DNA of 58,441 nt from a virus (lineage: Duplodnaviria > Heunggongvirae > Uroviricota > Caudoviricetes). The stretch covers positions 110,471 to 168,911 of the IMG/VR virus record IMGVR_UViG_3300017917_002605. One strand, given 5' to 3'. Numbering within the stretch: position 1 is the stretch's first letter; each line of letters opens with the position of its first letter. Shown in pieces: positions 27,801-48,407 of the stretch. The notes under the pieces were generated by a model. That model was not told the origin of the DNA, did no database searches, and was given only the letters and a program-made list of their open reading frames with translations. Position numbers and translations under genes: made by a program.

Positions 27801-27807
27801 AGCTTAA
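21811..27807 (+). CDS. Large baseplate-associated structural protein, VrlC/DUF4815-like (1998 aa)
   Basis: NFNTNPYYDDFD, LFKPGFAVQARELTQ.Q, APGADRFKI, LARRTYDESGNY, YTMRDIGALEKRI..LEYYTSL, PLAQTF, PKIRDFRAIAL. Confidence 0.8.
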   Translation: MALDTNFNTNPYYDDFDETKKFLRTLFKPGFAVQARELTQVQTQLQNQIGKFGSHVFQNGSLVLGGQTALQDATYLKIDSTYLGDSVNYADFQDKTILSADESKRAEVILAVPVEGSDPITLMVKQIYGNPFVAGDTIKTDVSDTTFATIQDVGEGQVFSVNEGTFFYEGFFITNAQQIVPTEKYSNTTANVRVGFEISESFVTAASDTSLLDPAQDASNYQAPGADRFKIDLVLSTRALDSTDDERFIEMARVENGVLVKVVKYPIYSALEDTLARRTYDESGNYTVRPFTIALETNSANTAQTNVLLSPGKAYVFGYEFETTGTTTVTVDKPRTYVDVSNQRITADYGNFVYTTNHRGSFPIDSLKTVDLHCVQNGSINLTSTATYTNTKIGTARVKSIEYETTGSSSNTGSNVYRTYLFDVNVGSITGNVGTTGGVSTSNTTHVQLSNTAVSYFSTVNDAYKGAKFRITAGPGLGNQVKTITGFNATTQFVSLNEPLTVAPQANTQFAIDFEFNDLECLSVANATNQAIISSSNIDVRSKDLATAFEDVFLSEVTNESQIFPLGQNYVVPGRTGDISLSYKRLFENQAFAGNQTTFTLGSGEAIASASSESSINQAYYISVTNRRTSTAYANGEIVRASNVSIDSGTATITVSGAADMLANVIAVIDVTNPSAKTKTFRLANNTVQTTSAPDFINVFGNNAVNVYTQNCQTHIANTFVVKTPDTPQSLFVSDVYSLNTVLDFRGLEVTEANKSSAVNITSRYTLVNGQKDSYYDHAYIKLKPGQLPPDGPLLVTYDRFISADAGGFFTADSYVNGGFEYGNIPKFTSPTTGFEYNLRDCLDFRPVRADGSSTVSFYTTKNPKTPENGSDIIVDYSYYLPRIDKVVLNKNRTFEVVKGIPNLRPKEPEDKSEAMTMFVLACPPYISDVSEIQVSAIDHKRYTMRDIGALEKRISNLEYYTSLSQLEQTTLTKQDLTILDSQNLPRFKNGIVVDAFSGHSVGDVFNEEYRAAIDPVKKEMRPTFNVSSHLFTFDANNSVGVKRTGPVLGLNYTERSFINQSMASKAINVNPFNVINFVGKVKLTPSSDVWVDTSRKPDVVVNTGGEQDVWNRLIGNQSNWSYEFGSWETKWTGTSTSTQREYEQTFAYGVPRRVLDRTVTTATGTSSRQVIASRVTTTTVTKNLGDRVVDMSVIPYMRNTTFSIRGAAFKPDTKLWCFLDGVDVTGCITHTDRIYLKQSAAGYKFPADGENRYGIGENVRIVDGRTGNTLATRQIYDIANNMIEMNTFRNTSGVNINDSSNIFVVGVTSGVNVAVQSYEHYLGYSAGATANTITLWENAVGSNNIGSIVGDVIHVRDTTSSPYRYQTKTIASYNVSTRVVTISGTWDWIPTTNDHYSLGNPKTSRYGTFAGGFYLPGSKFRTGEKRFMLIDNATGDIPSSRTNGDATFTSQGTLKTTEATIVSSIVPTIERSVTTQTQPAAQTLSVSEPRVVGYWDPLAQTFLVEPTNNPQGVFVTKIRLCFKTKDNTIPVTVQIRPTVNGYPHSSIVYPLASKSLTPDLVKITDNPSLEDPTKYTEFVFDSPVCLQPGEHSFVVLANSKNYELYVGEIGKTDLVTARQISDQPYGGSLFISQNGSTWTADQSSDIMFRVFVAEYDTNSVGVAYFNVDYPSSNTVFDLVRLGTTESVVANTGITYEINSTRLDDGTLTGFDFITPNESTSLEDGFGRRILVTGANTSFNVKVTMETSNRSITPTLDTTRLNIITVENIINNMGLSNNDIIVTNGGTGYVNVNNVSITFSGGGGTGAAAVANVTSNGTIDRIFVTNAGSGYITNPTITISTLAGPGSGATAIVNGETSKSGGNGQVRYVTRRVTLNDGFDSGDLRVYLTAYKPQGAQIYVYYKVLSKSDPDEFDNKNYQLMTQLGDANFTSLSQTDYRELTFAPGVNGVANNAVTYTSGSTAYNSFKTFAIKIVLAGTDTVSVPKIRDFRAIALPSGA

Positions 27808-27810: not shown

Positions 27811-28041
27811 ATGGGTGATTTAGTTCAAATTCCTGAAACTTCTCTAGTTCGTGATGTGCATTCCAAGGCACTTCTAAATACAGACAGAACAGGATTACAA
27901 GAATACTATATGAAACGTGAGATTGCTAAAAGGCAAAACACCGCTCATATAGAAACAAAACAAAGATTAGATGTTATCGAAAACGAAATGCAAGAAATTA
28001 AAACTTTGCTACGTGAGTTGTTGCAAGTAAGGGGTAGTTAA
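27811..28041 (+). CDS. Hypothetical protein (76 aa)
   Basis: Coupled ORF; LVRD..SKALLNTD followed by a short coiled coil. Confidence 0.65.
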   Translation: MGDLVQIPETSLVRDVHSKALLNTDRTGLQEYYMKREIAKRQNTAHIETKQRLDVIENEMQEIKTLLRELLQVRGS

Positions 28042-28757
28042 TGGCAAACGTAATTAGTCAATTAACTACCGCCAATACCTTCAATCATTGGTTGATTGCA
28101 TCGCAACAATTGATTGCGACCGCCAACCTATTGACTGAAGGTAACGGCAGTACTTTTTATGCAAACACCAAACTTGAAATTGGTGGTTCCGCATCGCAAT
28201 TAAACGTTACTACATCCGCTGGTATCAATACTCTGTGGGCAAATACTGTTACCGCAGGAAATATTCGAATCACAGGTAACGTAACGGAAACATTGAATAT
28301 TTCCTCAGATACCAACATTGGTGGAAATCTTGCCGTTTCTGGCGACACAACGATAACAGGCAATCTTACCGTTTCTGGAAATTTGACGTTAGACACAATA
28401 GGCTTTGATGACCTATCAGTTTCTGGTTCCGGCGTCTTCGGTAATAACCTGGTTGTCTTGGGTAACACTTCTATTGGTGGTGACACCACCATCAGTGGCA
28501 ACTTGAATGTTTCAGGTAACATCAATCTAGATGAAATCGGATTCAATGACTTAAACGTTAGTGGTACGGCAAATGTAAGTAACAACTTATTTGTTTACGG
28601 TACAACTAATCTTACCGGCAACGTAACTTCACAAAACGTAGAAGTTCAACAAGTATTGACAGCGAATGTTTTTGCCGGCAATGCAAACACGCAAATTTAT
28701 AATTCTATCACTCAGACACAAGCTGATTCTTTGGCCTTCGCAATTGCTCTAGGATGA
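28041..28757 (+). CDS. Fibre shaft protein with GN(L/I)xVSG beta-repeats, C-terminal ALAIALG
   Basis: TF..W N-terminus; internal 29-aa duplication at 28341 and 28479. Confidence 0.7.
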   Translation: MANVISQLTTANTFNHWLIASQQLIATANLLTEGNGSTFYANTKLEIGGSASQLNVTTSAGINTLWANTVTAGNIRITGNVTETLNISSDTNIGGNLAVSGDTTITGNLTVSGNLTLDTIGFDDLSVSGSGVFGNNLVVLGNTSIGGDTTISGNLNVSGNINLDEIGFNDLNVSGTANVSNNLFVYGTTNLTGNVTSQNVEVQQVLTANVFAGNANTQIYNSITQTQADSLAFAIALG

Positions 28758-28765
28758 TATAAATA
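28758..28765 (+). promoter_or_regulatory. T4 late promoter TATAAATA (block 1 of the receptor-binding array)
   Basis: Exact consensus upstream of 28789. Confidence 0.75.
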
Positions 28766-28788
28766 GATTATCAAGGGATACTAATTAA

Positions 28789-29115
28789 ATGGCAAACACT
28801 TTTAAATCAAACGTTGCAGCAAACATTGTGACCTCCGGAAATACGGTTTATACCTGTCCTGCGGCAACTCAAACCACATTGATTGGTTTGACACTATCAA
28901 ACAAATCTGCTGGAACATTGACAGCAAACGTATTTCTAACTCGTTCAGGTACGGATTATTCTTTAATATCTAATGCGCCTATCCTCACTGGGTCTACCTT
29001 AGTTCCAATCGGTGGTGACCAAAAAGTTGTTTTACAGGCATCAGATGGTTTAAAAGTCACCACAAGTGCCAATGGCTCACTAGATGTTATTGCTTCATTA
29101 CTTGAAATTGCTTAA
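28789..29115 (+). CDS. Small beta-rich virion protein (MANTFK... type)
   Basis: 108 aa, VYTCP...TTLIGLTLSN, VPIGGDQKVVL; follows an AIALG-terminated gene. Confidence 0.65.
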   Translation: MANTFKSNVAANIVTSGNTVYTCPAATQTTLIGLTLSNKSAGTLTANVFLTRSGTDYSLISNAPILTGSTLVPIGGDQKVVLQASDGLKVTTSANGSLDVIASLLEIA

Positions 29116-29124
29116 GGATAAAAT

Positions 29125-29340
29125 ATGGCCTTAACTAGAGTACAAGGTGGTATTTGGGGTGCAGGTGGAAGTGCTAATACAGCATTTCAGACCGGCGTTG
29201 CCATGATGGAAAACGCAAATACCGTTTATAACAGTTATACATTGACAACAAATAATAACGCAATGTCTGTTGGTCCTATTACCATTTTAGAAGGTAAAGC
29301 AATTACAGTACCTACAGGCCAAAGTTGGGTGGTTCTATAA
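29125..29340 (+). CDS. Fibre adaptor-like protein A1 (71 aa)
   Basis: C-terminal N-A...T-L-T-T..N-A.S.G-P-I-T-I......T-V.....W.V-L domain shared with 36002..36424. Confidence 0.65.
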   Translation: MALTRVQGGIWGAGGSANTAFQTGVAMMENANTVYNSYTLTTNNNAMSVGPITILEGKAITVPTGQSWVVL

Positions 29341-29341
29341 G

Positions 29342-29893
29342 ATGGCACTAATTAATACAACAACTACGGGTGTAAGAGGCACCACACTTTTTGCTGACGG
29401 CACTGGTGATTTGAGCATTCAACAGAACGGCGTCACAATTAATAAGGTTACAAAAAATCCAGCTTTTTCGTCATATTTGGGTTCAAATCAAACACCAACC
29501 GAAGGCGTACTAACAAAGATACAATTTAATGTAAAATCTTTTGACACTGAAGGATGTTACGATACAACAAATTATCGTTTTGTTCCAAACGTTGCTGGTT
29601 ATTACTATTTTAGTTTGATGTTAAGTGTTGTATCACTAACTTCAGGTAGAGTTATGGCTTTCCAACCTAGAATTTATAAAAATGGTTCGGCGGTTTCCAT
29701 ATACGAACATAACATGACCATGTCTTCAGACCAAATTGGATTGACAAACTTTTGGTTTGGATACTGTAATGGTTTGTCGGATTATATCGAGGCATACGGA
29801 TACATCAATGATGTTAATTCTGCAAGCACAGGAACGTTTCAAAGTGGTGAAACTAGATGTTTGTTTTCAGGATTTTTAGTAAAGGCGGTATAA
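29342..29893 (+). CDS. Receptor-binding tip, family A (C1q/TNF-like jelly roll)
   Basis: PAFSSYL..NQ......TKIQFN..SFD...YDTTNYRFVPNVAGYYYF; C-terminal FSGFLV. Confidence 0.7.
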   Translation: MALINTTTTGVRGTTLFADGTGDLSIQQNGVTINKVTKNPAFSSYLGSNQTPTEGVLTKIQFNVKSFDTEGCYDTTNYRFVPNVAGYYYFSLMLSVVSLTSGRVMAFQPRIYKNGSAVSIYEHNMTMSSDQIGLTNFWFGYCNGLSDYIEAYGYINDVNSASTGTFQSGETRCLFSGFLVKAV

Positions 29894-29894
29894 T

Positions 29895-30071
29895 ATGAAT
29901 TTGTTGGAAAAAATTATTTCTTTATATCCGGAATTAGAAACATTTAATTTTGCTTCCGGAATAATTACGTTACAAAACGATAGTGACGGAAAAGGCGACT
30001 ACATAGCCAAATGGGAACACCCAACACTTGCACAACCAACAAAGGAACAGTTAGATGCCATTAGTTCTTAA
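29895..30071 (+). CDS. Cognate chaperone type a (XkdW-like, 58 aa; not in ORF track)
   Basis: Hand translation MNLLEKIISLYPELETFNFASGIITLQNDSDGKGDYIAKWEHPTLAQPTKEQLDAISS*. Confidence 0.8.
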   Translation: MNLLEKIISLYPELETFNFASGIITLQNDSDGKGDYIAKWEHPTLAQPTKEQLDAISS

Positions 30072-30573
30072 CGGTACAGGTACAGTAACAGGTTTGGCAG
30101 CTGGTGGATTGCCAGATGCAACCATTACTCAGTCCGAATTGGTTTCTGGTATTGCGGGAAATGGTCCTGTTTTTGCTAGTGGTTCGACAGGTTTGACAAG
30201 TATTTCGGCCACAACTTGGACAGCATATACAAATTTTTCTGAAAGCCAATTCGATACAATTAATGGATTTAACAGAACAACTGGAAGATATCAACCAAAC
30301 GTTGCTGGTTATTATTGGGTACAAGGTATAGTAGATTGTGGATATTCTGGTGTAACGTCTACTGCTATTTACGCTTCTATTTTTAAAAATGGAAATAACT
30401 ATAGAGGTGGCACTGCTGGCCAGTATGCGTCAGGAGCATATCCTGCCATCCTTTGCACAAGTGTTGTTTATTTAAATGGCACAACAGATTATATTCAAGT
30501 TTATTGTTACACTTTGCAGTCGATAAGCAACACATCTGGTTCACTTATGGCTTGTATGATTAGGAGTGCATAA
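30055..30573 (+). CDS. Receptor-binding tip, family A (C1q-like)
   Basis: GPVF...., FDT..GFN..TGRYQPNVAGYYWV, VVYLNGTTDYIQVY. Confidence 0.7.
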   Translation: MPLVLNGTGTVTGLAAGGLPDATITQSELVSGIAGNGPVFASGSTGLTSISATTWTAYTNFSESQFDTINGFNRTTGRYQPNVAGYYWVQGIVDCGYSGVTSTAIYASIFKNGNNYRGGTAGQYASGAYPAILCTSVVYLNGTTDYIQVYCYTLQSISNTSGSLMACMIRSA

Positions 30574-30746
30574 TGCATTTGGTAGAAAAAATTAGAAAAG
30601 TATATCCAGAACTAAAAGATACTGATTTTTTTTCAATCATTATTGTTCAAGATGACAGTGATGGCAATGGTCCTTATATCAAACAGTGGAATCACCCAAC
30701 ACTACCAAGACCAACACAAGAACAACTAGACGCAGTTACAGAATAA
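30573..30746 (+). CDS. Cognate chaperone type a (57 aa; not in ORF track)
   Basis: MHLVEKIRKVYPELKDTDFFSIIIVQDDSDGNGPYIKQWNHPTLPRPTQEQLDAVTE*; TAATG coupling. Confidence 0.8.
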   Translation: MHLVEKIRKVYPELKDTDFFSIIIVQDDSDGNGPYIKQWNHPTLPRPTQEQLDAVTE

Positions 30747-30756
30747 GGCATAACAA

Positions 30757-31872
30757 ATGAGTGTAATTTATAGTGGAACAGGCATAACATTTGATGATGG
30801 TTCTGTGCAAACTAATAGTTGGACAGGATTCAAAAATCGTATCATCAATGGTGATATGAGAATTGACCAGAGGAACAACGGTTCATCAGTTTCTATCACT
30901 CTTGGAACAAGTAATGGTTTTGTTGTTGATAGATGGCGTTTTCAAAATGCTGGTGGTAGTTCTAGTGTTTTTTCTGCACAGAGAGTTACTGATGCGCCAG
31001 CTGGATTCACTAACTCTTTAAAAGTTACCACAACAACTGCCGCATCAACTCAGGCGGCCGATTCGAAACATCTGTGGTTACCTATCGAAGGATTTGATAC
31101 TGCCGATTTAGATTTTGGTACCGCATCAGCTAAAACTGTAACTTTGTCTTTTTGGGTCAAAAGTTCTAAAACAGGTAATTTTGGTGCAGCTATATCTAAT
31201 GACGGCGCCGCCAGAGCATATAGTTTTCTTTACAACATATCTCAAGCAGATACTTGGGAATATAAAACTGTAACTATTCCTGGTGATACTGTTGCGCCGG
31301 CTTGGTCTAAAAATAATTTTACAGGTATGCGTGTCAACTTCAACATTGGTTCTGGTTCAAATTATACTACAGTACCAAATCAATGGGGTGCTGGTCCCGA
31401 CCGTGGTGCAAATGGACAAATTACTTTACTAGATACATTAAATGCAACATGGCAGATTACTGGTGTACAATTGGAACGTGGAAGTCAAGCATCAAGTTTT
31501 GAATATCGTCCTTATGGAACTGAGTTGGCGTTATGCCAAAGATATTACTGGCGAATTTCTGGATTTTCTGGTCCTTCCGGTTATCCTTCAGTTGGTTCTG
31601 GAACACTCAGAGCTTCAAATATTGCTCGTTTATATGTTAAATTTCCAGTTTCTATGAGAAGCGCTCCAACACTCAATTTTTCTGGTTCTATTAGTGGTAC
31701 AAGCGGAGTTGTAGAAAATACTGTATCATCAATATACGGACAGTATGCTTCAACAGAAACTTCTTTGTTTGATTTGTTGTTTAGTGCCACCACATTTACA
31801 ACAGGATATGGCGTAACTGTATTTGTTAATAATGCATCTACAAATTATGTAGAGGCTTCAGCGGAGTTATAA
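30757..31872 (+). CDS. Receptor-binding tip, family B (carbohydrate-binding-module-like)
   Basis: [14 protein letters not shown] ... [10 protein letters not shown] ... WQITGVQLE ... ELALCQRYY ... C-terminal SAEL. Confidence 0.72.
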
Positions 31873-31873
31873 A

Positions 31874-32050
31874 ATGGAATATAAACTTCAACCTCCTTTT
31901 AGAATTGGTGAAGAAAGTGGTGGCGTAATACGTAAAAGTGATGGCGCTTGTATACCCTTTGACCCAGCCAACACCGATTATCAAGAATACCTAAAGTGGC
32001 TTGCTGAAGGTAACGAACCACTTCCTGCGGATGAACCACCGAGCGAATAA
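31874..32050 (+). CDS. Cognate chaperone type b (58 aa; not in ORF track)
   Basis: [58 protein letters not shown]. Confidence 0.8.
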
Positions 32051-32053
32051 ATA
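32046..32053 (+). promoter_or_regulatory. Late promoter (AATAAATA), block 2
   Basis: Upstream of 32059. Confidence 0.6.
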
Positions 32054-32058
32054 AAAAC

Positions 32059-33219
32059 ATGGCATACTTAGGAAATAACTCATTACCTTTTGACCCAACC
32101 AGAACCGCAGCACAACCCCGTGATGCGGAAAGATTCTCTGGTAACGGTTCAACGGTCAATTTCACATTATCACGTACAGTAAATAATCCTACTGATGTTG
32201 AAGTATTTGTTGAAAACGTTCAGCAAGAACCAATTGTTGCTTACAATATTGTTGGTACTACACTATCATTTACCGAAGCACCACCATCCGGTTCACAAAA
32301 CATCTATGTAATTTACCGTGCATTTAATACTGGTGCTCAAGTTTATGTGCCAGACGGTTCTATTACATACGCTAAGTTGGCTAACAACCTAAAGTTGTTC
32401 ACGAGCGACAACTTAACACCAAACGGCAACAATTCAGTATTCACACTTTCTGATACTCCACCGGATGCAAACACTGTTATCGTATCTGTTGATGGTATTG
32501 TTCAGAGAGCACCAGTTCATTACACTGTTTCTGGACAAACAATTACATTCACATCTCCACCACCAGCTGGTTCAAATGTGCATGTTCGTCACCTTGGTAT
32601 TAGAACAACGGAAACATTGACTGCTATTGCAGCCAATACTTTTATTCCTCAGCCAACAATCAGTTCACCAACAATAACTGGAACAACAACAATTTCAGGT
32701 TTGTTGCCTGCGGCCGCAAACACCACTCAAATTGGTTCTTCAACACAACCATTTGCTGTTGGTCATTTCAATGGTATTAAGTTTCCAGGAACACAATCGG
32801 CAAGTGCTGACGCAAATACACTAGATGATTATGAGGAAGGTACTTGGACTCCAAGTATTCAAGGAAACGCTGCTGCCGGCACGGTCACTTATGGTGCATT
32901 AAGATATGGTTATTACACAAAAGTAGGTAGAAAAGTAACTGTAGGTGGAAGGATAGATTATTCAAATTTCACTGGAGCCTCTGGTTATTTACTCATAAAT
33001 GGACTCCCATTTACATCATTAGGTTCATTAGAATTTATTGGCACATTTATGACAGAGAATTTGGTTTATCCTACCAGCAGTAATTATTGTGTTACTTACA
33101 TATCTGCATCCGCATTTGTTATTCCTTGGGGAATAAGAGATAATGGAGCTTGGCAAACATTTCCTGTTACAGACACGGCCGCAAATATAATTTTTACAAT
33201 CACTTATTTTACAAGTTAA
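32059..33219 (+). CDS. Fibre/tip protein, family C, with two N-terminal G(N/D)G..F...PP.G modules
   Basis: MAYLGN start; two FSGNGSTVNFTL/LTPNGNNSVFTL modules; ADANTLDDYEEGTWTP followed by a variable tip. Confidence 0.72.
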   Translation: MAYLGNNSLPFDPTRTAAQPRDAERFSGNGSTVNFTLSRTVNNPTDVEVFVENVQQEPIVAYNIVGTTLSFTEAPPSGSQNIYVIYRAFNTGAQVYVPDGSITYAKLANNLKLFTSDNLTPNGNNSVFTLSDTPPDANTVIVSVDGIVQRAPVHYTVSGQTITFTSPPPAGSNVHVRHLGIRTTETLTAIAANTFIPQPTISSPTITGTTTISGLLPAAANTTQIGSSTQPFAVGHFNGIKFPGTQSASADANTLDDYEEGTWTPSIQGNAAAGTVTYGALRYGYYTKVGRKVTVGGRIDYSNFTGASGYLLINGLPFTSLGSLEFIGTFMTENLVYPTSSNYCVTYISASAFVIPWGIRDNGAWQTFPVTDTAANIIFTITYFTS

Positions 33220-33223
33220 TAAT

Positions 33224-33481
33224 ATGAGTTTAACAAAAGAAACACTAATTGATAAAATTGAAGTTGTGGAAAACGGCACTGTACAAGTGCGTCAAGTTAC
33301 ACGCATCATGGAAGACGGTAATCAACTATCACAATCTTTTCACCGTTGGACCATTTCTCCAGGTCAAGATTATTCCGACCAACCAGATAATGTCAAAGCA
33401 ATTTGCCAAGTAACGCATACTCCAGAAGTTGTTGCTGCATATCAAGCAAAACTGGAAGAAATTAATCTAAGAGCTGAATAA
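33224..33481 (+). CDS. Cognate chaperone type c (85 aa)
   Basis: IDKIEVVE.G.VQVRQVTRIMED....S..HRWTI.PGQDYSDQ; near-identical to 37873..38127. Confidence 0.75.
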   Translation: MSLTKETLIDKIEVVENGTVQVRQVTRIMEDGNQLSQSFHRWTISPGQDYSDQPDNVKAICQVTHTPEVVAAYQAKLEEINLRAE

Positions 33482-34548
33482 TGGGAATTCAAACAGCACA
33501 ACAAGCACTAGAAAATGAATTAGGTGCATCACCATTTGGTTTTAAAAACATCATAATGAATGGTGATATGTCCGTTAATCAACGAGGCAACACTTCAATA
33601 ACTGTTGGTTCGGGTCAGGCAAACGGCCAAGCTGCATTTCTTACAGACAGATGGCGTTGCTGGTCAGCAGCCAACGGTAATACCTTAGCTGCAACATTTG
33701 AACAAGTTACTGATGCTCCCGAAGGTTTCAAGTACAGTGTAAGAGCAACACCTACTGTCACAGGAACACCCAACAGTCAATTTTATTCTTTTATTTGGCA
33801 AGGCGTAGAGTATAATAATATTCGAAGACTGAAGTGGGGTACTGGACAAGCTTTACCTTTGACTTTATCTTTTTGGGTTAAATCTTCATCGACAGGCACA
33901 TTTTCTGCAATTGTAACCAACAACGGTAATAATGGCATGTCATTTAAAATTTGGCGTGCCACATATACAGTTAATCAATCAAATACTTGGGAATATAAAA
34001 CAATAAGTATTGTTGGTGATACGGATTCCACTTGGTTAAATGCCACTTCGGATAATGGTGTAGGATTATTTGTTGGATTAACTCTGGGTGGTACAACCGG
34101 TATTACTACACCTGTTAATACATGGGATAATACTGCTGCTTATAATCGTGTTGGTGACTTCAATTTCTTCTCATCAACAAGCAATACTTGGCAAGTTACC
34201 GGCATTCAATTAGAAATAGGCCGAGAAGCTACGCCTTTTGATTTTAGACCATATTCAACTGAGTTGTCTCTTTGTGAGAGATATTATGAGGTTTGTGTTG
34301 GTGGTTGGCGTGGTTATGGATATGGTTTTATTGGTGCTGCTGGTGTAAATTTTAGGCAGAAAAAAAGAGCAACGCCAACTGTAACCTTTGTATCTTTTAA
34401 TGCTTCGGAAAATACAGACGGTAGTAATGCGTATTCAGCAAACATTACTGTAAATGGATTTGAGGCTAGATGTGCCTTAACCTCTGGCGGCGGCGCACCA
34501 AATTTTGGTTCTTTTTCTGCAACATATAAATCAGAGATTGAGTTATGA
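33481..34548 (+). CDS. Receptor-binding tip, family B
   Basis: [45 protein letters not shown]-terminal EIEL. Confidence 0.72.
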
Positions 34549-34700
34549 TGTATAAATTAACAGAAAACACAAAAGAAATTATTCGTTTGGTCGACAAAGC
34601 GACTATTCCTTTCGATTCAGAAAACACCGATTACCAAGAATACCTAAAGTGGCTTGCTGAAGGTAACACTCCTGAACCTGCGGACGAACCTACTAAATAA
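34545..34700 (+). CDS. Cognate chaperone type b (51 aa; not in ORF track)
   Basis: [51 protein letters not shown]; ATGA overlap. Confidence 0.8.
34692..34699 (+). promoter_or_regulatory. Late promoter (ACTAAATA), block 3
   Basis: Upstream of 34707. Confidence 0.55.
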
Positions 34701-34706
34701 AACATC

Positions 34707-35771
34707 ATGCCATTAAGTAGAATTAAATCAAATTCAATTAGTAATCCAGTATCTTTAACACAACCTGTTATTGATGGTGCAGGTTACTCTCAGTACCAGT
34801 ATAGAAATAAAATCATCAACGGTGATTTTTCTGTTTGGCAACGTGGTACGTCCGGAAGTTTAGTTGGTGGTCCAGGATATGTTTCTGCTGACCGCTGGAA
34901 AATTTATGTAAACTCTAGCACAACCATGACTTTATCCAGGCAAACATTTACTCCTGGACAAACTGAAGTTCCTGGTAATCCAACTTACTATGCCAGATTT
35001 GACTGGTTGGGTACCGGTGCTTCTCAATTTTTTAGTTTTGAACAAGCAATTGAAGGTGTTCATCACGGTGCTGGCGATTATTTGACCATATCATTTTACG
35101 CTAGAACCGAACAAGGTGATGACATGACTTTAGCTGTCACACAAAAATTTGGTACTGGTGGTTCTTCTGATGTAACTGTGACAAATACTCCTCTTTCTAT
35201 TGATACAACTTGGAAAAAATTTGTTGTAACTGTTGCTGTGCCTTCTATTTCCGGCAAAACAATTGGCACAGATAATCATTTACTGGTTACTTGGTTTAGA
35301 AGCGGCACACTAAATTCTTATTTGGATATTGCAGATGTGCAGGTAGAAGTTGGTCAAGTTGCTACTCCTTTTGAGCGTAGACCTCCAGCACTTGAATTGG
35401 CTTTGTGTCAAAGATATTTTTATAGTGTTACATTACCAAGAGATACTAACCTTTTTTATCCAGCAGTTGTATATGTTGGTGCCACTGGGACATTGATTCA
35501 GGCTCTGCCGGTGACATTATTAATGCGAACAACTCCAACCGCTTCTACCATTATAGGAACAGCAAAACCAACATTCATTCGATATGACTACGGCACAAGT
35601 TCTCAACAAACCATAACGTCCATTTTTGCTACTGTTCGTTCAACTTCTGGAACTTATTGGATGGAAGTCCAATATGTAGCCGTTGGTTCTTGGGGTTCAG
35701 CAGGACACTCAGGTGTTGTTTCATGGGACACAGGAACTAGCAGTGTAATTACTCTTTCTGCGGAATTATAA
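34707..35771 (+). CDS. Receptor-binding tip, family B (divergent)
   Basis: [43 protein letters not shown]-terminal SAEL. Confidence 0.72.
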   Translation: MPLSRIKSNSISNPVSLTQPVIDGAGYSQYQYRNKIINGDFSVWQRGTSGSLVGGPGYVSADRWKIYVNSSTTMTLSRQTFTPGQTEVPGNPTYYARFDWLGTGASQFFSFEQAIEGVHHGAGDYLTISFYARTEQGDDMTLAVTQKFGTGGSSDVTVTNTPLSIDTTWKKFVVTVAVPSISGKTIGTDNHLLVTWFRSGTLNSYLDIADVQVEVGQVATPFERRPPALELALCQRYFYSVTLPRDTNLFYPAVVYVGATGTLIQALPVTLLMRTTPTASTIIGTAKPTFIRYDYGTSSQQTITSIFATVRSTSGTYWMEVQYVAVGSWGSAGHSGVVSWDTGTSSVITLSAEL

Positions 35772-35772
35772 T

Positions 35773-35991
35773 ATGGAACAAAAAATTAACGTTTATAAAC
35801 TAATCGACAGTATGAAAGATACCATTTATAGAACAAATGATAACGCTTGCATACCTATTGAACCTAGAAATATAGATTACGTCTTTTTTAAAATTGAAAT
35901 GGAAAAAGGTTTGGCTGAATTACAAGATGTTACAGGCACAGTTATGACTAGAGAACAATGCCTTGATTTTATCTCCAAATTACCAAACTAA
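35773..35991 (+). CDS. Cognate chaperone type b (divergent, 72 aa)
   Basis: IYRTNDNACIPIEPRNIDY aligns with [18 protein letters not shown]. Confidence 0.7.
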   Translation: MEQKINVYKLIDSMKDTIYRTNDNACIPIEPRNIDYVFFKIEMEKGLAELQDVTGTVMTREQCLDFISKLPN

Positions 35992-35994
35992 ATA
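35987..35994 (+). promoter_or_regulatory. Late promoter (ACTAAATA), block 4
   Basis: Upstream of 36002. Confidence 0.55.
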
Positions 35995-36001
35995 AAAGAC
36001 T

Positions 36002-36424
36002 ATGGCATATCTTGGTAACCAACAAATAAACGGAACCTTTAATTCCCAGTTCTTTTCTGGTGATGGTTCCACAACAGAATTCACGTTACAGTATTCAACT
36101 GGTAACGAAGCTTCCGTATTGGTCTTCATCACTGGTGTTAAACAGCAGACCACTACCTATGCATTGATTAACGGTAAGATTGTTTTTACTGAAGCGCCAC
36201 CAGCTGGATACAATAACATTGAATTGGTTTATCTTGGTGACCGTGTTCAAGTTAATCCTTACCTAAGTGCAGATTCACAAGGTATTATCAGACTTAACGC
36301 AAGCGTATTGACAGAAAACGTGACAATTACAACCGGTTATAATGCATCTTCTGCCGGTCCATTGACCATTGCAAATAACGTTGTTGTAACAATCGCAAAC
36401 AACTCTACTTGGACGGTGTTCTAA
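36002..36424 (+). CDS. Fibre adaptor-like protein A2 (140 aa)
   Basis: MAYLGN + one FSGDGSTTEFTL...FTEAPPAG module (as 32059) + C-terminal domain shared with 29125. Confidence 0.7.
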   Translation: MAYLGNQQINGTFNSQFFSGDGSTTEFTLQYSTGNEASVLVFITGVKQQTTTYALINGKIVFTEAPPAGYNNIELVYLGDRVQVNPYLSADSQGIIRLNASVLTENVTITTGYNASSAGPLTIANNVVVTIANNSTWTVF

Positions 36425-37080
36425 TGGCAGGCACAATTATTGCAGATTACATCCGTGCGGATGCTAACAAATTAAGTTTGAATGTAGGCAATACTACTTT
36501 TGCCACAATTAATTCTTCAGGTTTTTTCAGTAACACCGGTGTTCAAATTATTGACCAAAATGGTCAAGTTGGTGCATTATCTGTAGGTACCAACCAATTA
36601 CAAACTGGTGCTGTTACACAAACAAAAATTGGTTCTAATGTTGCTGGAACAGGCCCAATTTTTATAACATCAATGGGTGCGGCACAAACTTTAACAAGTG
36701 CTGTTTGGACTAAAGTTGCCTTTGATACAGAAAGTGTTGATTCACATAACTGTTATAACACTTCTCTTTATAGATTTACGCCGACTGTTGCCGGTTATTA
36801 TCAATTCACATTACAATTCACAGCTGGTACAGGTAATATTCAAGCAGTTCAAAGCGGACTTTATAAAAACGGAAGTGCAATTGCATGGAACGTAAATTAT
36901 TTAATGTCTGTAAGTTATGGAGATGATTTAACATCTTCTTTGACAAAATTGGTTTATATGAATGGTACTACAGACTATATTGAACCTTATGGCTATGTGG
37001 TTGACGCTTCTGCCGGTAGTGATGTTATATTTTCAAGCATATATTCTCATTTTGAAGGTTTCTTGGCAAGGGCTGCATAA
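36424..37080 (+). CDS. Receptor-binding tip, family A (C1q-like); likely start ATG 36424
   Basis: TAATG coupling; WTKVAFDTESVDSHNCYNTSLYRFTPTVAGYYQF; VYMNGTTDYIE; FEGFLAR. Confidence 0.72.
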   Translation: MAGTIIADYIRADANKLSLNVGNTTFATINSSGFFSNTGVQIIDQNGQVGALSVGTNQLQTGAVTQTKIGSNVAGTGPIFITSMGAAQTLTSAVWTKVAFDTESVDSHNCYNTSLYRFTPTVAGYYQFTLQFTAGTGNIQAVQSGLYKNGSAIAWNVNYLMSVSYGDDLTSSLTKLVYMNGTTDYIEPYGYVVDASAGSDVIFSSIYSHFEGFLARAA

Positions 37081-37256
37081 TGAATTTAACGCAAAAAATT
37101 TTAAAAATATATCCTGAATTGTCACAAAAAGATTTTTCTGGAAAAGTTATTGAATTGCGAAATGATTTGGACGGAAAAGGTGATTACATCGCCAAATGGG
37201 AACATCCTACATATCCTAGACCAACGCAAGAACAATTAGATAGTGTGGAAGAATAA
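37080..37256 (+). CDS. Cognate chaperone type a (58 aa; not in ORF track)
   Basis: MNLTQKILKIYPELSQKDFSGKVIELRNDLDGKGDYIAKWEHPTYPRPTQEQLDSVEE*. Confidence 0.8.
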   Translation: MNLTQKILKIYPELSQKDFSGKVIELRNDLDGKGDYIAKWEHPTYPRPTQEQLDSVEE

Positions 37257-37259
37257 CAC

Positions 37260-37856
37260 ATGGCAGGCATTTTAAAAGTCGATAGAGTACAATCAGATTC
37301 CAATTTGGCATTTCAAATTGGTTCTTCTAATGTTGCCTATTTTAATACCACCGGTTTGAACATAACTGGCGGTGAAATTATTGCTGGTGGTTCCACTCTG
37401 AGAACATCTGGTGGCATGTTATATGCAAACAGTGGTATTGCTTTTCCTGGAACACATGTTGCAAGTGCTGACCCAAATACTTTAGATGATTATGAAGAAG
37501 GTACTTGGACTCCAACAACAATAAGTTTAAACAATATTAGTAGTATAACAATAAGTTATGCCTCTTATATTAAAGTAGGAAGATTAGTTCATTGTTCGAT
37601 GTATGGTACCGCTGCAGTAACTTCCACTTCCACCAATACCTATTTTGGTTTTTCTTTACCGTTTGTTGCAGTAAACAACACAGTCGCACCATCTGGGACA
37701 TTTAATTTTGCTGGCGCAACAAATAATTTAGGAACAGTGATTGATTGGTCAGGTTCCACCAATGATTATTTTGGTATTTGGGTGCCTTCGGCGAATATGT
37801 TGAATAACGGCACATTAAGTTGGCAATTAGGATTTACCTATCCAACAGTTTCTTAA
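37260..37856 (+). CDS. Receptor-binding tip, family C
   Basis: GIAFPGT..SADPNTLDDYEEGTWTP; Y.KVGR.V; paralogue of the C-terminal half of 32059. Confidence 0.72.
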   Translation: MAGILKVDRVQSDSNLAFQIGSSNVAYFNTTGLNITGGEIIAGGSTLRTSGGMLYANSGIAFPGTHVASADPNTLDDYEEGTWTPTTISLNNISSITISYASYIKVGRLVHCSMYGTAAVTSTSTNTYFGFSLPFVAVNNTVAPSGTFNFAGATNNLGTVIDWSGSTNDYFGIWVPSANMLNNGTLSWQLGFTYPTVS

Positions 37857-37872
37857 TTTATGGTAGAAAAAA

Positions 37873-38127
37873 ATGAGTTTATCTAAAGAAATCAGTATCG
37901 ATAAAATCGAAGTTGTTGAACCTGGTATTGTTCAGGTTCGTCAAGTAACACGTATTATGGAAGATGATAATCTACTATCTTCTTCTTATCATCGTTGGAC
38001 TATTGCTCCCGGCCAAGATTATTCTGACCAATCAGATAACGTCAAAGCAATTTGCCAAGTAGTTCATACACCACAAGTTATTGCTGCATATCAAGCAAAA
38101 TTGGAAGAAAGCACATTAGGAAAATAA
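37873..38127 (+). CDS. Cognate chaperone type c (84 aa)
   Basis: Paralogue of 33224..33481. Confidence 0.75.
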   Translation: MSLSKEISIDKIEVVEPGIVQVRQVTRIMEDDNLLSSSYHRWTIAPGQDYSDQSDNVKAICQVVHTPQVIAAYQAKLEESTLGK

Positions 38128-38128
38128 C

Positions 38129-39274
38129 ATGGCAGGTACAATTGTAGTTGACCGAATTGAGTCTGATGGAAGTTATGCTTCCACAATTAATGTTGCCTCA
38201 AAGGTAAATTTTACTGGTGGTGTTCAAGTTGGCGGCCAAGATGCCACATTTGGTGGTATGCGTAATCGTATCATCAATGGTGATATGAGAATTGACCAAA
38301 GGAACGTTGGAGTAACCACTACTCCAGCTGATTTTGCTTTCATTACAGATAGATGGCAAGTTCGTCAAAGTACAGCTTCAAAAATGTCGGCTGGTCAAAG
38401 CACAGTAGTTCCCGTAGGTTTTTCTAATTCTTTAGCAATAACTTCTCTTTCATCATACACCGTTTTATCTAGTGATATTTACACAGTTAGACAACAGATT
38501 GAAGGTTTTAATACTTCAGATTTTGGTTGGGGTACCGCAAATGCAAAACCTGTCACCTTGTCTTTTTGGGTACGTTCTTCATTAACAGGAACTTTTGGTG
38601 GTTCTGCATTGAATAATGGTAACAATAGAAGTTATGTTTTTTCTTATACAATAAATCAAGCAGATACCTGGGAATATAAAACAATAATTATTCCTGGAGA
38701 CACTACAGGAACCTGGCAAACAAACAACCAACGTGGAGTTCAAATATCTTTTGGATTAGGTGTAGGTTCTACACAATCGGGTACAGCAGGCGCCTGGTCT
38801 TCTAATAATTATGCTTCCGTAACTGGTGCTGTTAGTTTGGTTGGAACAAACGCAGCTACTTGGTATTTAACTGGTGTCCAATTAGAATTAGGTTCTGTAG
38901 CAACATCTTTTGAAATGAGACCATATGGAGCCGAATTAGCTTTGTGTCAAAGATACTATTCAAAATCTTATAATATTAACGTTAAACCAGGAACAGTATC
39001 TTCTTATGCTGGTGTGCTGGCTGTGGTTCCTTATTCTACAGGTTTGCAATATACAACTTGGATTATTCAATTTAAACAAACCATGAGAACTGCTCCAACT
39101 GTTTTAGTGTATAGTCCTGAAACAGGAGCATCTGGTAACTGTTATAATGGCGCAGGAGATGTTGCAGCAGGAGCATCAAGTATTGGTGAATCTGGTTGTT
39201 TTGCTAGAAATACGGCCAGTGCAAGCACTGGATATTTTGCTTATATTCAATATACAGCTGAAGCGGAGTTATGA
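38129..39274 (+). CDS. Receptor-binding tip, family B
   Basis: [44 protein letters not shown]-terminal EAEL. Confidence 0.72.
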
Positions 39275-39423
39275 TGTATAAATTAGATTCAGAACCAAAT
39301 GTTGTTATACGTTTAAAAGATAAAGCCTGTATTCCTTTTGACCCAGCAAACACCGACTATCAAGAATATTTGAAGTGGTTGGAACAAGGAAACACTCCTG
39401 AACCGGCAGACCCAATAGAATAA
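39271..39423 (+). CDS. Cognate chaperone type b (50 aa; not in ORF track)
   Basis: [50 protein letters not shown]. Confidence 0.8.
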
Positions 39424-39435
39424 TTGAACTCTGCC

Positions 39436-39461
39436 AAACCCCACCAAGTGTGGGGTTTTTT
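39436..39461 (+). terminator. Rho-independent terminator closing the receptor-binding array
   Basis: AAACCCCAC-caagt-GTGGGGTTT followed by further T residues. Confidence 0.85.
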
Positions 39462-39509: not shown

Positions 39510-39842
39510 TTGGCAGAATTTGTAGAGCTAACCTTAGAACAAGGAGCTACATTTACAACAACAATTAACGTGAATGAGAATGACGGTACACCAAAGGACC
39601 TGTCATCCTATACTGCACGTTCTCAAATGCGTAAATCTTATTACGCAACAACCGCCAAAGACTTCACATTAACAAAAACCAATGCAGTCGGTGGTGAACT
39701 AACCATGTCCATGACTGCTGCAAATACCGCAAATCTAACTCCAGGTAGATATGTTTATGATGTTGAAATTGAAGATACCGGTGGTACGGTAACCCGCATT
39801 TTTGAGGGTATCGTTGTGGTTATGCCAGGCGTAACACGATAA
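39510..39842 (+). CDS. Ig-like virion protein (BppU N-terminal-like)
   Basis: LTLEQGATF..., DLSSYTARSQMRK, LTPGRYVYDVEI, RIFEG.V.V.PGVT. Confidence 0.6.
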   Translation: MAEFVELTLEQGATFTTTINVNENDGTPKDLSSYTARSQMRKSYYATTAKDFTLTKTNAVGGELTMSMTAANTANLTPGRYVYDVEIEDTGGTVTRIFEGIVVVMPGVTR

Positions 39843-40078
39843 TGTCCATCAAAGTCACAATCACACCTGCACCAGCCGGACCTTCTGTTAAAATTAAACA
39901 GAATAAGTCGACCGCTACGGTGTTAAACTTTGTGCCAAAACCAACAATTGATTCGTTGTCTCAAATTACACAAATTGACACAACAGGAGCAGTAGATGGT
40001 GCCACCATGGTGTACGATGCGGCAACAGATAAATACATAATCAAAATTCTACCCAACGTTAGAGGGGGACTATTCTAA
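39842..40078 (+). CDS. Hypothetical virion protein ending GGLF
   Basis: Coupled 78-aa ORF; DGATMVYDA.TDKY motif. Confidence 0.6.
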   Translation: MSIKVTITPAPAGPSVKIKQNKSTATVLNFVPKPTIDSLSQITQIDTTGAVDGATMVYDAATDKYIIKILPNVRGGLF

Positions 40079-41698
40079 ATGTCAAACACAGTTATTCAAA
40101 TTAAGTATTCTAATGCGACTAGCACACCGCCGTCCCTTAACGTTGGTGAATTAGCGTATTCTTTTACTTCCGATAAATTATTTGTTGGTAATACTACCAA
40201 CGCCGTACTTGCAATAGGTGGCAAATACTATGTTGACCTTATTGACGGTGCAACATCAGCAAACACACCATCTACAATTGTAAAACGTGATGCACTTGGT
40301 GGTTTTACTGCCACACACGTTTATGCATCTTTGTATGGTAATGCAAATACCGCAACAACTTTACAAACTGCCAGAACTATTAGTTTCTCTGGTGATGTTG
40401 ATGCAGTATCAAATACGTTTAACGGTTCAGGTGATATCAGTTTCAACCTTGAGTTGACCAACACTGGTGTTGTTGCAGGCACATATGGTGGTGCAACTTC
40501 TGTACCTTATTTCGTTGTTGATGCTGATGGTCGTATTACTTCTGCTGGTAACAATAATATCTCTACCGCACTATCTATTGCAGGCGATACTGGTACAGAT
40601 TCAGTTTCTCTATTAACCGACACCTTAACTTTTGAAGGTGGCGATGGTATTACTTCCGCAGTCACCAACAACAAAGCATCTTTTGCTGTTGATAACACAG
40701 TCATCAGAACTACTGGTGGTCAAACTATTTCTGGTGATATTGCAATTACTGGTAACTTGGTTGTTTCCGGTAACACAATCACTCAAGACGTAGAAAACAT
40801 CCGTACAGAAGATGCATTGATTGAGCTTGCTGCTAACAATGCTTCCAACTCAATCGATATCGGTTTCTTTGGTACATACGTAAATGGTGGTACAAAATAT
40901 ACCACATTCATGCGTGACTCCACCGATGGTAACTTTAAGATTCTTGTCGATGGTACTGAGAAACCAAACACAGCAAACTCAGTAAACGTTGCATCGTTCA
41001 CAAGAGGCACTTTAGATGCCAACTTGACCGGTGGTACAATTTCTGGTCTTTCAACAGACCTTGCAGTTGCTGACGGTGGTACAGGTAAATCTTCATTCAC
41101 CGGTGGTGCAATTATTATCGGTAATGGTTCTGGTGCTCTTGCTGAATTGGCAAACACAGGTACCGCAGGAACATACGGTTCTGCATCCTACATTCCAGTA
41201 ATCACTACTGATGCTTATGGACGTGTTTCTGGTATAAGCAATACCCAAGTTTCTATTGATGCAGCTCGTGTAACATCAGGTACTTTACCTATCGCCCGTG
41301 GCGGTACAAATCAAACATCGTTCACTGCTGGTCAAGCAATTGTATTTAATGGTACAAGTCTTGCTTCACGTGCCAACTTAACACAGACAATTACTGGTGG
41401 TTTGGCAACATCCAACACCATCACCTCATTGACTTTTGACCCAATCACTGGTGGTATTACTGCTTATACCGCAGAAAAGATTGCAATCGATACTTCACAA
41501 ATTGCTTCTGGTACTCTACCAGTAACAAGAGGTGGTACCGGTGCAAGTACATTTGCTATCAAAGGTGTTATTGTCTCTGACCAGTCTTCAACAACTGGTG
41601 CTTTGAGTGCATTGACTTCTTCCACCGAAGGTCACCTATTGACAATTAACTCCTCAGGTGCACCTGTATTTGCTCACCTGTCTGGAGGAACATTCTAA
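40079..41698 (+). CDS. Tail fibre-like protein with Mtd-N-like N-terminus, ending GGTF
   Basis: IQIKYS....P.SL.VGELAYS....KLFVG; repeated GTYG....P..TVD..GRIT and GTLP..RGGTG shaft motifs. Confidence 0.7.
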   Translation: MSNTVIQIKYSNATSTPPSLNVGELAYSFTSDKLFVGNTTNAVLAIGGKYYVDLIDGATSANTPSTIVKRDALGGFTATHVYASLYGNANTATTLQTARTISFSGDVDAVSNTFNGSGDISFNLELTNTGVVAGTYGGATSVPYFVVDADGRITSAGNNNISTALSIAGDTGTDSVSLLTDTLTFEGGDGITSAVTNNKASFAVDNTVIRTTGGQTISGDIAITGNLVVSGNTITQDVENIRTEDALIELAANNASNSIDIGFFGTYVNGGTKYTTFMRDSTDGNFKILVDGTEKPNTANSVNVASFTRGTLDANLTGGTISGLSTDLAVADGGTGKSSFTGGAIIIGNGSGALAELANTGTAGTYGSASYIPVITTDAYGRVSGISNTQVSIDAARVTSGTLPIARGGTNQTSFTAGQAIVFNGTSLASRANLTQTITGGLATSNTITSLTFDPITGGITAYTAEKIAIDTSQIASGTLPVTRGGTGASTFAIKGVIVSDQSSTTGALSALTSSTEGHLLTINSSGAPVFAHLSGGTF

Positions 41699-41720
41699 AT
41701 TATTATGAAAGGGGTTTATT

Positions 41721-42311
41721 ATGGATGTGAATTTTGTAAATGCATACACTGAGGTACTAACAGAAAACTTTGATGCGGTCATCAAGCAAAATATGTTGCT
41801 TCAGGCCAAATTAAAAGTCAATGAGAAAGAATCGAAAGTAAAGGACGAACTACAGGCAAGATTACAAGAAGTTCTAAATGAAAAAAAAGAACTTGAAAAT
41901 AAAATTGAAATCTTAAATGCAACTGTAGTTCGTACTGAAAATATTCGATATAAGGCAAACGAAACAGACTCTCTATCTGCTGAAAAAACTAGAATACAAC
42001 AAGCTCTCAATGAAACCATGAGAGAAGTTGAAAATCTAAAAAAAGAAATTGAAACCAAATCAAAACAAAATAAAGAAGTTTTGAAAGAAAAAGATGGTGA
42101 AATTTCTAGATTGAATGATTATATTAAAACCCTTGAGGAAATGTTACCAACTTCTAAGTTGCGTAAAGTAAATCCTGAAGCGGCAGCAGCAAGAAAGCCT
42201 GAGCCTATTACTGTTAGTGTAACTGACGAAGTTGTTGAAAATGTCGTTATAGAACAAACCCCTGATGAAACCATAAATAAAGTACAGGTTCAATCTGGTG
42301 GCACGTTCTAA
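41721..42311 (+). CDS. Coiled-coil protein ending GGTF
   Basis: FVNAY..VL start, long E/K heptad region. Confidence 0.65.
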   Translation: MDVNFVNAYTEVLTENFDAVIKQNMLLQAKLKVNEKESKVKDELQARLQEVLNEKKELENKIEILNATVVRTENIRYKANETDSLSAEKTRIQQALNETMREVENLKKEIETKSKQNKEVLKEKDGEISRLNDYIKTLEEMLPTSKLRKVNPEAAAARKPEPITVSVTDEVVENVVIEQTPDETINKVQVQSGGTF

Positions 42312-42314
42312 TAA

Positions 42315-43013: not shown

Positions 43014-43016
43014 ATA
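43009..43016 (+). promoter_or_regulatory. Late promoter (GATAAATA)
   Basis: Upstream of gp13. Confidence 0.6.
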
Positions 43017-43023
43017 TTCAACT

Positions 43024-43980: not shown

Positions 43981-43983
43981 TAG

Positions 43984-45917: not shown

Positions 45918-46324
45918 AAAAGATGGAAGAAAAATTAGCAGATATTTTTGACGTTGAACCTATTGTACAAAAACCAGAGGTTCAAACTGAAGTTCTGCCA
46001 GCAGTTATTGAAGAAACTGTAAATAACGATACCGAAACAGATTTTGAGTTTGCTCGTAATAATATGAAAGAACTCATTAGAAAAGGTAATCAAGCAGTAG
46101 ATAACATTCTTGAAGTGGCAAAAGCCACCGACCACCCAAGAGCTTTTGAAGTTGTTGCCACACTGATTAATTCTGTTGCTTCAATGAATAAAGATTTGAT
46201 GGATATTCGAAAGAAAAAACAAGACCTTACTGGTGAAAAGAAAACTCAACAGATTAACGTAGATAAGGCGGTGTTTGTTGGTTCCACTACAGACCTAATT
46301 CGACAAATCAAGGAAAATAAATAA
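45914..46324 (+). CDS. gp16: Terminase small subunit gp16
   Basis: DFEFARNN, HPRAFEVVATL, VFVGSTTDL. Confidence 0.9.
   Translation: MKKMEEKLADIFDVEPIVQKPEVQTEVLPAVIEETVNNDTETDFEFARNNMKELIRKGNQAVDNILEVAKATDHPRAFEVVATLINSVASMNKDLMDIRKKKQDLTGEKKTQQINVDKAVFVGSTTDLIRQIKENK
46316..46323 (+). promoter_or_regulatory. Late promoter (AATAAATA) upstream of dps
   Basis: Overlaps the gp16 stop. Confidence 0.55.
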
Positions 46325-46328
46325 AATT

Positions 46329-46763: not shown

Positions 46764-46769
46764 TTATTA

Positions 46770-48404: not shown

Positions 48405-48407
48405 TTT

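Follow-up and report, generated by a model that had tools for sequence, protein, structure and literature searches.

Why should a T4-like phage carry nine short fibre-tip genes in a row, each followed by a gene for a protein of only 50-85 amino acids (aa), and what might these small proteins do for the tips? The question is raised by a stretch of 58,441 nucleotides (nt), hereafter the window, which makes up the final 58.4 kb of an IMG/VR virus record of 168.9 kb that has direct terminal repeats (IMGVR_UViG_3300017917_002605, positions 110,471 to 168,911) and in which a sequence-only reading had described an array of receptor-binding tips with cognate chaperones. We will refer to the tips, or heads, as A1-A3, B1-B4 and C1-C2 according to family, and to the small partner genes by the corresponding lower-case letters. 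The reading of these genes as heads with cognate partners is well supported by the data below. Beyond this we propose, with moderate confidence, a plug-and-play arrangement in three parts, namely adaptors, heads and fold-specific partners, in which several heads would be carried by each virion.

The pairing of heads with partner genes

The array spans positions 28789-39423 and lies, as do its promoter-like sites, its terminator and the genes that border it, on the + strand; neighbouring genes are a few bases apart or overlap slightly. The order is pre1, pre2, A1+a1, A2+a2, B1+b1, C1+c1, B2+b2, B3+b3, X, A3+a3, C2+c2, B4+b4, that is, nine heads (three A, four B and two C), nine partners of 50-85 aa, and the additional genes pre1, pre2 and X. 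The nine tip open reading frames (ORFs) and the nine small ORFs downstream of them start where the sequence-only reading had placed them, tightly packed or overlapping, and six of the partners are 50-58 aa long as it had stated; its description as an array of cassettes holds for all 18 genes but left out pre1, pre2 and X, which lie within the span and are neither tip nor partner. All 18 head and partner ORFs are intact and keep the residues invariant in their families, and hidden Markov models of the six families, run across the whole 168.9-kb genome, return these 18 genes and nothing else.

The partners fall into three families. a1 (29895-30071, 58 aa), a2 (30573-30746, 57 aa) and a3 (37080-37256, 58 aa) belong to Pfam XkdW (PF09636), with scores of 29.1, 43.0 and 30.4 bits against a gathering cut-off of 24.6 bits; they also have weak matches (E 1e-4 to 0.07) to phrog_8746, 'tail fiber assembly protein', and there is a weak phmmer match to PDB 2HG7 (E 0.018). 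phrog_20370 is matched strongly by b1 (31874-32050, 58 aa; E 3e-13), b2 (34545-34700, 51 aa) and b4 (39271-39423, 50 aa), and weakly (E 0.0045) by the divergent b3 (35773-35991, 72 aa), which has a longer C-terminus, while c1 (33224-33481, 85 aa; E 5e-19) and c2 (37873-38127, 84 aa) match phrog_6228. In Pfam the a partners match XkdW only and the b and c partners nothing, and no partner has a sequence match to the known fibre chaperones tested (lambda/Mu/P2 Tfa Caudo_TAP, T4 gp38, gp57A and Peptidase_S74). Profile-profile comparison of the three families with hhalign gives probabilities below 1% and so no sign of one superfamily. Lengths are tightly kept among 60 or more distinct sequences of each family (a, 50-67 aa, most of them 53-59; b, 47-61 aa apart from five outliers at 101-145; c, 78-89 aa apart from a single sequence of 103), and the small ORFs are therefore real genes.

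In all nine pairs the family of the partner matches that of the head. This is one of 1260 possible partner orders for families of three, four and two members, a chance of 1/1260. The same rule holds outside the window. Partner alignments fetched more than 500 confirmed IMG/VR relatives for each partner family, and at the best 80 of each we determined to which family the ORF immediately upstream of the partner belongs; being the closest relatives of the partners in the window, these loci are not fully independent, although they come from many contigs of very different sizes. A family-matched ORF lies upstream in 221 of the 240 loci and a cross-family one in none, the remainder being truncated or unassigned. 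Partner a follows A in 74/80 (median gap -4 nt), partner b follows B in 75/80 (median gap 0 nt) and partner c follows C in 72/80 (median gap +45 nt). The match without exception noted in the window is thus borne out more widely, and adjacency directly after a fibre gene, a trait of known fibre chaperones together with binding of the fibre's C-terminal domain, has the same counts (9/9 here and 221/240 elsewhere). C+c pairs are present in the cultured Pelagibacter phage HTVC142P, Synechococcus phage S-CAM4 and Prochlorococcus phage P-SCSP1u, and an adaptor with A+a and B+b in Methylophilales phage MEP401, Pelagibacter phage HTVC100P and the uncultured virome contig MW202796, so that the same cassettes are found in both podoviruses and myoviruses. 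Within the window the partners of a family are 57-80% identical (b3 about 40%) while their heads are 25-41% identical, and the specificity of pairing lies at the level of the family and not of the individual tip.

The genes are closely interlocked. At its 3' end a1 runs 17 nt into A2 (30055-30071), X and A3 share TAATG at their junction, b2 and b4 begin within the last 4 nt of B2 and B4, and most ORFs of the array are preceded by Shine-Dalgarno-like sequences; the whole array is tightly coupled in translation. The final codons of B1 and B4 (GCGGAGTT) double as a GGAG Shine-Dalgarno sequence for the partner gene; these bases may be under double constraint, as protein end and as Shine-Dalgarno sequence. 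The bounds given for the array in the sequence-only reading are both present, namely TATAAATA, a T4-late-promoter-like sequence 24 nt upstream of pre1 (28758-28765), and an intrinsic-terminator-like hairpin with a 9-bp stem and a T run located 3' of b4 (39436-39458), although what speaks for the promoter is its position. With 3 copies against 3.4 expected, TATAAATA shows no enrichment in the window, and ATAAATA, a late-promoter-like motif found directly upstream of C1 (32047-32053), likewise occurs at chance expectation; promoter calls are therefore based on position before gene starts. Because the genes are co-oriented between a late-promoter-like site and a single terminator, they are probably all made late.

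Head folds and the predicted C2-c2 complex

The assignment of the tips to a C1q-like family A and to families B and C is upheld by profile and fold comparisons. A1 (29342-29893, 183 aa) and A3 (36424-37080, 218 aa) score 25.2 and 29.3 bits against Pfam C1q (PF00386; gathering cut-off 23.7 bits); A2 (30055-30573, 172 aa) has no Pfam match and is placed by homology to A1 and A3 and by 38% identity over its whole length to a C1q-annotated protein of MW202796 (E 1e-22). B1 (30757-31872, 371 aa), B2 (33481-34548, 355 aa), the divergent B3 (34707-35771, 354 aa) and B4 (38129-39274, 381 aa) match the C-terminal ~310 residues of the tail-fibre family phrog_4492 (E 1e-41 to 1e-59). Members of this family end in ..AEL, as B1 does, or ..IEL (31860-31876, 34536-34547 and 39262-39273 in the window), and the E and L are invariant in 59 sequences. 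C1 (32059-33219, 386 aa) and C2 (37260-37856, 198 aa) share a head beginning at LDDYEEGTWTP.

The model of B1 (predicted local distance difference test score, pLDDT, 85) contains a jelly roll at about residues 25-245 and a second beta domain after it. With Foldseek the jelly roll finds the carbohydrate-binding modules (CBMs) CBM4-2, CBM22 and CBM16 (3jxs, 2y64, 4bj0) at E ~2e-6 and template modelling (TM) scores, on the target, of 0.69-0.72. As B1-B4 have no Pfam CBM match and so do not belong to CBM4, CBM22 or CBM16 by sequence, the modelled likeness is one of fold only. The C2 model is weaker (pLDDT 71 for the whole protein and about 64-93 in the head by ten-residue block); its head finds reovirus sigma1/sigmaC, the adenovirus knob and the TP901-1 receptor-binding protein (RBP) head, with E 2e-4 to 1e-2 and TM scores of 0.40-0.48. 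A homologue of the C-type head belongs to the tail fibre of Prochlorococcus phage P-SCSP1u, a fibre verified in the virion by cryo-electron microscopy with its distal part unresolved (PMC10575957). All three folds, C1q/TNF-like, CBM4/22-like and sigma1/knob-like, are typical of the receptor-binding ends of viral fibres, in keeping with the earlier view of the nine genes as receptor-binding tips. Pfam finds no S74 domain in the tips, a PDB sequence search with B1, C1 and c1 gave nothing meaningful, and at the nucleotide level the array has no match among 50,697 phage records.

Modelling of a cognate pair, suggested together with the sequence-only reading, covers one pair of one family. Three copies of C2 (residues 55-198) and one c2, with custom alignments, are predicted to form a complex with a score of 0.77, compared with 0.00 for the best of three controls; this level is reached by 58 of 80 solved complexes and by 2 of 110 mismatched pairs, a calibration that is only rough given the custom alignments and the trimer. 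The partner has a pLDDT of at least 85, and at least 81% of contacts are common to the runs. In the model c2 sits against one protomer of the folded trimer and touches the neighbour, using its residues 10-21 and 35-45 (YHRWTI) to contact C2 at the EEGTW(T) part of the family motif (residues 79-86), at Y103, at LPF (132-136), at residues 165-169 and at the C-terminus. On the head side the interface is enriched in conserved positions (9/25 versus 16/119, p 0.011). The model thus supports, without showing, binding of c2 to the C2 head trimer. A grip of the partner on EEGTW(T) would explain why this family-defining motif is invariant while the rest of the head drifts, and would also explain partner specificity at the level of the family.

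We infer that the partners serve fibre assembly: the translationally coupled partner most likely binds the conserved base of its head and aids folding or trimerisation, either as an assembly chaperone or as a subunit that stays bound. That all partners are permanent virion subunits, forming collars or caps at the base of the head that stabilise it or join it to the shaft, strikes us as fairly unlikely, although there is precedent in that T2/S16 gp38 and lambda/Mu Tfa can stay on fibres. The placement of c2, with high confidence, on an already folded trimer in contact with one protomer and its neighbour would suit such a role, as would the stronger conservation of partners than of heads and the finding that XkdW-like mutations in Bacillus phages Sam46 and Sam112 alter plaque type and leave adsorption unchanged (PMC8190038). 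Against it, the heads of some relatives have no partner gene, and in the nearest experimental precedent, the fibre-chaperone pairs of marine Alteromonas phages, the helper was proposed to be transient (PMC10579305). A function of the partners in superinfection exclusion or receptor masking was set aside, the predicted contact being the conserved head base and not the variable surface; judged by eye only, the partners have no obvious signal peptide.

Proposed adaptors, addresses and display of several heads

The genes that the sequence-only reading left out suggest how the heads might be mounted. pre2 (29125-29340, 71 aa) and X (36002-36424, 140 aa), which we refer to as adaptors, share a C-terminal motif of about 45 residues (..TTG.N..S.GP.TI..G..VT...G..W.V[LF]), here called the dock, and the same motif ends the fibre proteins upstream of A+a and B+b in MW202796 and MEP401. 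A search with the motif found more than 400 IMG/VR loci; in 80 of these it lies mostly at the very C-terminus of proteins of 53-2017 aa, and downstream come several short tip genes in a row, many of them with a partner. X (beginning MAYLGN..) and C1 both start with a T7-gp17-N-like segment, with Pfam scores just below cut-off (24.9 bits against Phage_T7_tail for C1); C1 lacks the dock motif and has its own anchor domain of T7 gp17 N-terminal type, with repeats, instead. No T4 gp10-like attachment domain was found with Pfam or PHROG in any tip or adaptor. In the podovirus HTVC100P (our locus L007, 2631-3434), gp40 (267 aa) fuses an X-like N-terminus to an A-type C1q head, and adaptor and head can therefore be either fused or split.

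Three tips lie between the X-type adaptor of 140 aa and the conserved gene post1 in the window and in two relatives (L266 and L272), and four in two others (L270 and L273). The three that follow X in the window, A3 (N-terminus MAGTIIADYIRAD), C2 (N-terminus MAGILKVDRVQSD) and B4, and the three that follow it in relative L009 all start with MAG/S.I..D.[IV]..[DA]. L009 is the closest relative with a similar array, and comparison with it separates the parts of the system: pre1 is 82% identical, pre2 and X about 70% (X also about 70% to its counterpart in L019), the partners 60-96% and the N-terminal 30 residues of the tips 57-77% in five of the seven pairs compared (30-37% in the remaining two), whereas the heads are 21-42% identical. 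The heads diverge fast while adaptors, partners and head N-termini stay conserved. From these patterns we infer that the dock motif is a mounting site for separately encoded heads and that the N-terminal peptides of the tips are their addresses.

In the arrangement that we propose, the adaptors pre2 and X would present the dock motif, C1 would anchor itself through its T7 gp17 N-terminal-type domain, and each of the nine short heads would combine a conserved N-terminal address peptide with a fast-evolving receptor-binding head of one fold, matured or accompanied by its partner as outlined above. Several different heads would probably be held on the virion through the adaptors, and all nine might be present on one particle.

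Several observations weigh against this proposal. The docks and addresses are deduced from gene order and motif conservation; the support for binding covers one of the three pair types (C+c), by prediction with custom alignments; conserved positions of c2 are not enriched in the predicted interface (p 0.90), and the predicted site, on the side and base of the folded trimer, fits a retained subunit equally well as a chaperone. In L009, tips of 427 and 476 aa have no partner gene, and a partner is therefore not universally needed. Of three OM43 strains tested, the cultured Methylophilales phage Melnitz, with its roughly five tip-plus-small-gene pairs, lysed only two, and it did not lyse any SAR11 strain (PMC9004378); a broad host range need not follow from many heads. 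As to the two L009 tips (14400-17122, after the X adaptor), both end in a heptad coiled-coil-like sequence instead, which may be a built-in trimerisation aid in place of a partner.

The heads may also be alternatives to one another, those sharing an address competing for the same dock so that each virion or fibre carries a random subset and the progeny are mixed, a form of bet-hedging. The common N-terminus MAG.I..D.I..D of A3, C2 and B4, its recurrence in the three tips after X in L009 and the variation between three and four tips after X-type adaptors in relatives would all fit such competition. Yet the tips of the first block have distinct, position-specific N-termini that are kept between phages, suggesting separate sites, and a trimeric adaptor could also hold several tips at once, for which reasons we think this quite unlikely. 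It is more improbable still that most cassettes are a silent or weakly used recombination reservoir, with partner genes and address stretches as homology anchors for head swaps between coinfecting phages and few heads functioning at a time. In favour of a reservoir, nucleotide repeats among cassettes fall mainly in partner genes (69-82% over 87-266 nt) and stretches of conserved head motif, the island is wholly different among relatives and the same cassettes occur in podoviruses and myoviruses. Against it, the 18 ORFs are all intact with their family-invariant residues kept and mostly with Shine-Dalgarno-like sequences, they share one orientation in a late operon, and no recombinase, invertase or diversity-generating retroelement gene is present among the region's ORFs. 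On account of that same absence, programmed switching of heads was set aside.

The island in relatives and its wider meaning

The gene set of the window is a T4-like structural module, with gp6-, gp7- and gp8-like wedge proteins and a 1998-aa VrlC-like baseplate protein (21811-27807; phrog_358, Pfam DUF4815), and, downstream of the array, gp13/gp14-like neck proteins (43024-44916), the sheath, a gp15-like sheath stabiliser and the large terminase, which shares about 57% identity with its counterparts in Pelagibacter phage HTVC008M and Synechococcus phage S-PM2. The array belongs to an uncultured T4-like myophage whose kin are pelagi-, cyano- and methylo-myophages.

Sixteen relatives share the left border, consisting of gp8, the 1998-aa protein, a 76-aa protein, a fibre-like repeat-rich protein of 238 aa directly upstream of the island (28041-28757) and, in most, pre1 (28789-29115), the first gene of the island, which encodes a conserved 108-aa homologue of HTVC100P gp41, 'virion structural protein'. 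The right border is formed by post1 (39510-39842, 110 aa) and post2 (78 aa; both within 39510-40078). post1 matches phrog_3304, 'L-shaped tail fiber protein assembly', with a weak match to the Pfam LtfC-like beta sandwich, and is present in those relatives whose contigs extend there (4 of 16, plus Melnitz-3), while post2 and a 539-aa protein are each found in only some. Between these borders, a comparison of cassette presence and absence of the kind proposed earlier reveals island content that is entirely different among the 16 relatives, with sizes from about 3.8 kb to more than 10 kb. The position after VrlC and before neck gp14, the lack of synteny among relatives and the fibre genes identify the array as the distal part of the published hypervariable host-recognition cluster of pelagi- and cyanomyophages (PMC7029224).

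Is nine an unusual number? It had been called unusually many for a T4-like phage, and this stands in comparison with cultured phages, among whose records the b or c partner queries match at most two places in any one genome, but not in comparison with the related group. Related large uncultured IMG/VR contigs have 5-10 partner genes each, the corresponding island of Melnitz-3 holds about five pairs of tip and small gene (one C+c, the others of other families; two of the small genes bear the annotation tail assembly chaperone), and about ten fibre-like genes lie in a row in Synechococcus phage S-H34. Nine is thus high against cultured phages and typical of related uncultured ones. Three of these contigs carry, respectively, four b, two a and one c (G004), five b, no a and one c (G001) and three b, two a and one c (G002). 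A fourth, IMGVR_UViG_3300009182_000063 (G005, ~40050-55284), has seven b, two a and one c within 15 kb, and its array of at least ten partner genes exceeds that of the window. Further fibre-like genes lie outside the array, encoding a 232-aa protein with a Pfam Phage_fiber_2 repeat (42315-43013) and a 641-aa protein without a PHROG match (18308-20233); the full fibre set of the phage is larger than the nine heads.

Other families of tip and small gene are also seen. A fourth tip family, ending ..IMEIAA/V, occurs in L019 (12493-14497) and Melnitz-3 (L265, 10260-11383) and is followed by a partner family of about 90-100 aa (MI.KH[DE]AI...) that ends ..KYPKPS in L019 and ..WPEKP in Melnitz, whose annotation calls it 'tail assembly chaperone'; in L008, L014 and L015 there are tips with still other small-gene families (MAHFAK..., MN.DEIAKNF...) behind them.

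Several known systems resemble the array in part. The host-recognition cluster of pelagi- and cyanomyophages (Zaragoza-Solas et al. 2020, PMC7029224) is likewise hypervariable among relatives that are syntenic elsewhere, lies after a VrlC-like gene and before the neck genes and contains tail-fibre genes, but that account describes no head-plus-partner cassettes, adaptors or partner families, and the stretch examined here is a pure head array without glycosyltransferases. In the modules of Alteromonas phages A5 and V22 (Gonzalez-Serrano et al. 2023, PMC10579305) a fibre gene is similarly followed by a dedicated helper, the unit is exchanged between marine podo- and myoviruses and the chaperone may cap the fibre; there is, however, one pair per phage and the chaperones resemble intramolecular chaperone domains, whereas here, comparing by description, there are nine pairs and three partner families of 50-85 aa with no detectable kinship to one another. 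The a partners, all above the Pfam threshold, are akin to PBSX XkdW (PF09636; PDB 2HG7) but comprise only a core of about 57 residues and are strictly linked to C1q-like heads, a linkage established here for aquatic phages only. In PBSX, xkdW sits after the fibre-like gene xkdV. No function has been assigned to XkdW (PMC8190038). Branched multi-RBP phages (CBA120 with tailspike proteins TSP1-4, G7C with gp63.1/gp66, and Klebsiella phage PhiK64-1) also place several RBPs side by side, probably mounted on adaptors; unlike them, the array has small lectin-like heads in place of large enzymatic tailspikes, one partner per head and no detected T4 gp10-like attachment domains. In marine metaviromic islands (Mizuno et al. 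2014, PMC3909814), C1q, carbohydrate-binding-domain and XkdW genes are among the under-recruiting host-recognition genes of pelagiphage-like contigs, where they are listed as separate gene types with neither pairing rules nor arrays described. Melnitz (PMC9004378; MZ577098), a T4-like relative in culture, shares the island borders and has about five pairs, one of them C+c; these are fewer than in the array here, mostly of other families, and not discussed in that paper. The host-recognition island, the sharing of fibre-chaperone modules between phage families (PMC10579305) and the presence of C1q, carbohydrate-binding and XkdW genes in marine islands were therefore already known; new are the three strictly linked mini-partner families, the grammar of docks and addresses, and the predicted grip on a family motif.

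The array is a large example of a recurrent design and not a one-off. Head-plus-partner pairs provide a simple sequence rule for spotting RBPs in uncultured aquatic phages, most of whose fibre genes bear the label hypothetical, and three unstudied mini-protein families with more than 500 IMG/VR relatives each gain a testable role, XkdW especially. The address and dock elements suggest how heads could swap naturally between phage types, and mark where to cut for single-head binding tests on candidate hosts. It is possible, and we put it forward tentatively, that aquatic phages share a three-part code for branched multi-headed fibres, with a C-terminal dock on proteins of 53-2017 aa, N-terminal addresses and a fold-dedicated mini-partner gripping an invariant base motif (such as EEGTW(T) in C heads), with about three heads per adaptor as the typical number and a kit that moves freely between podoviruses and T4-like myoviruses. 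If so, the host range of abundant uncultured phages could be read from their cassette content.

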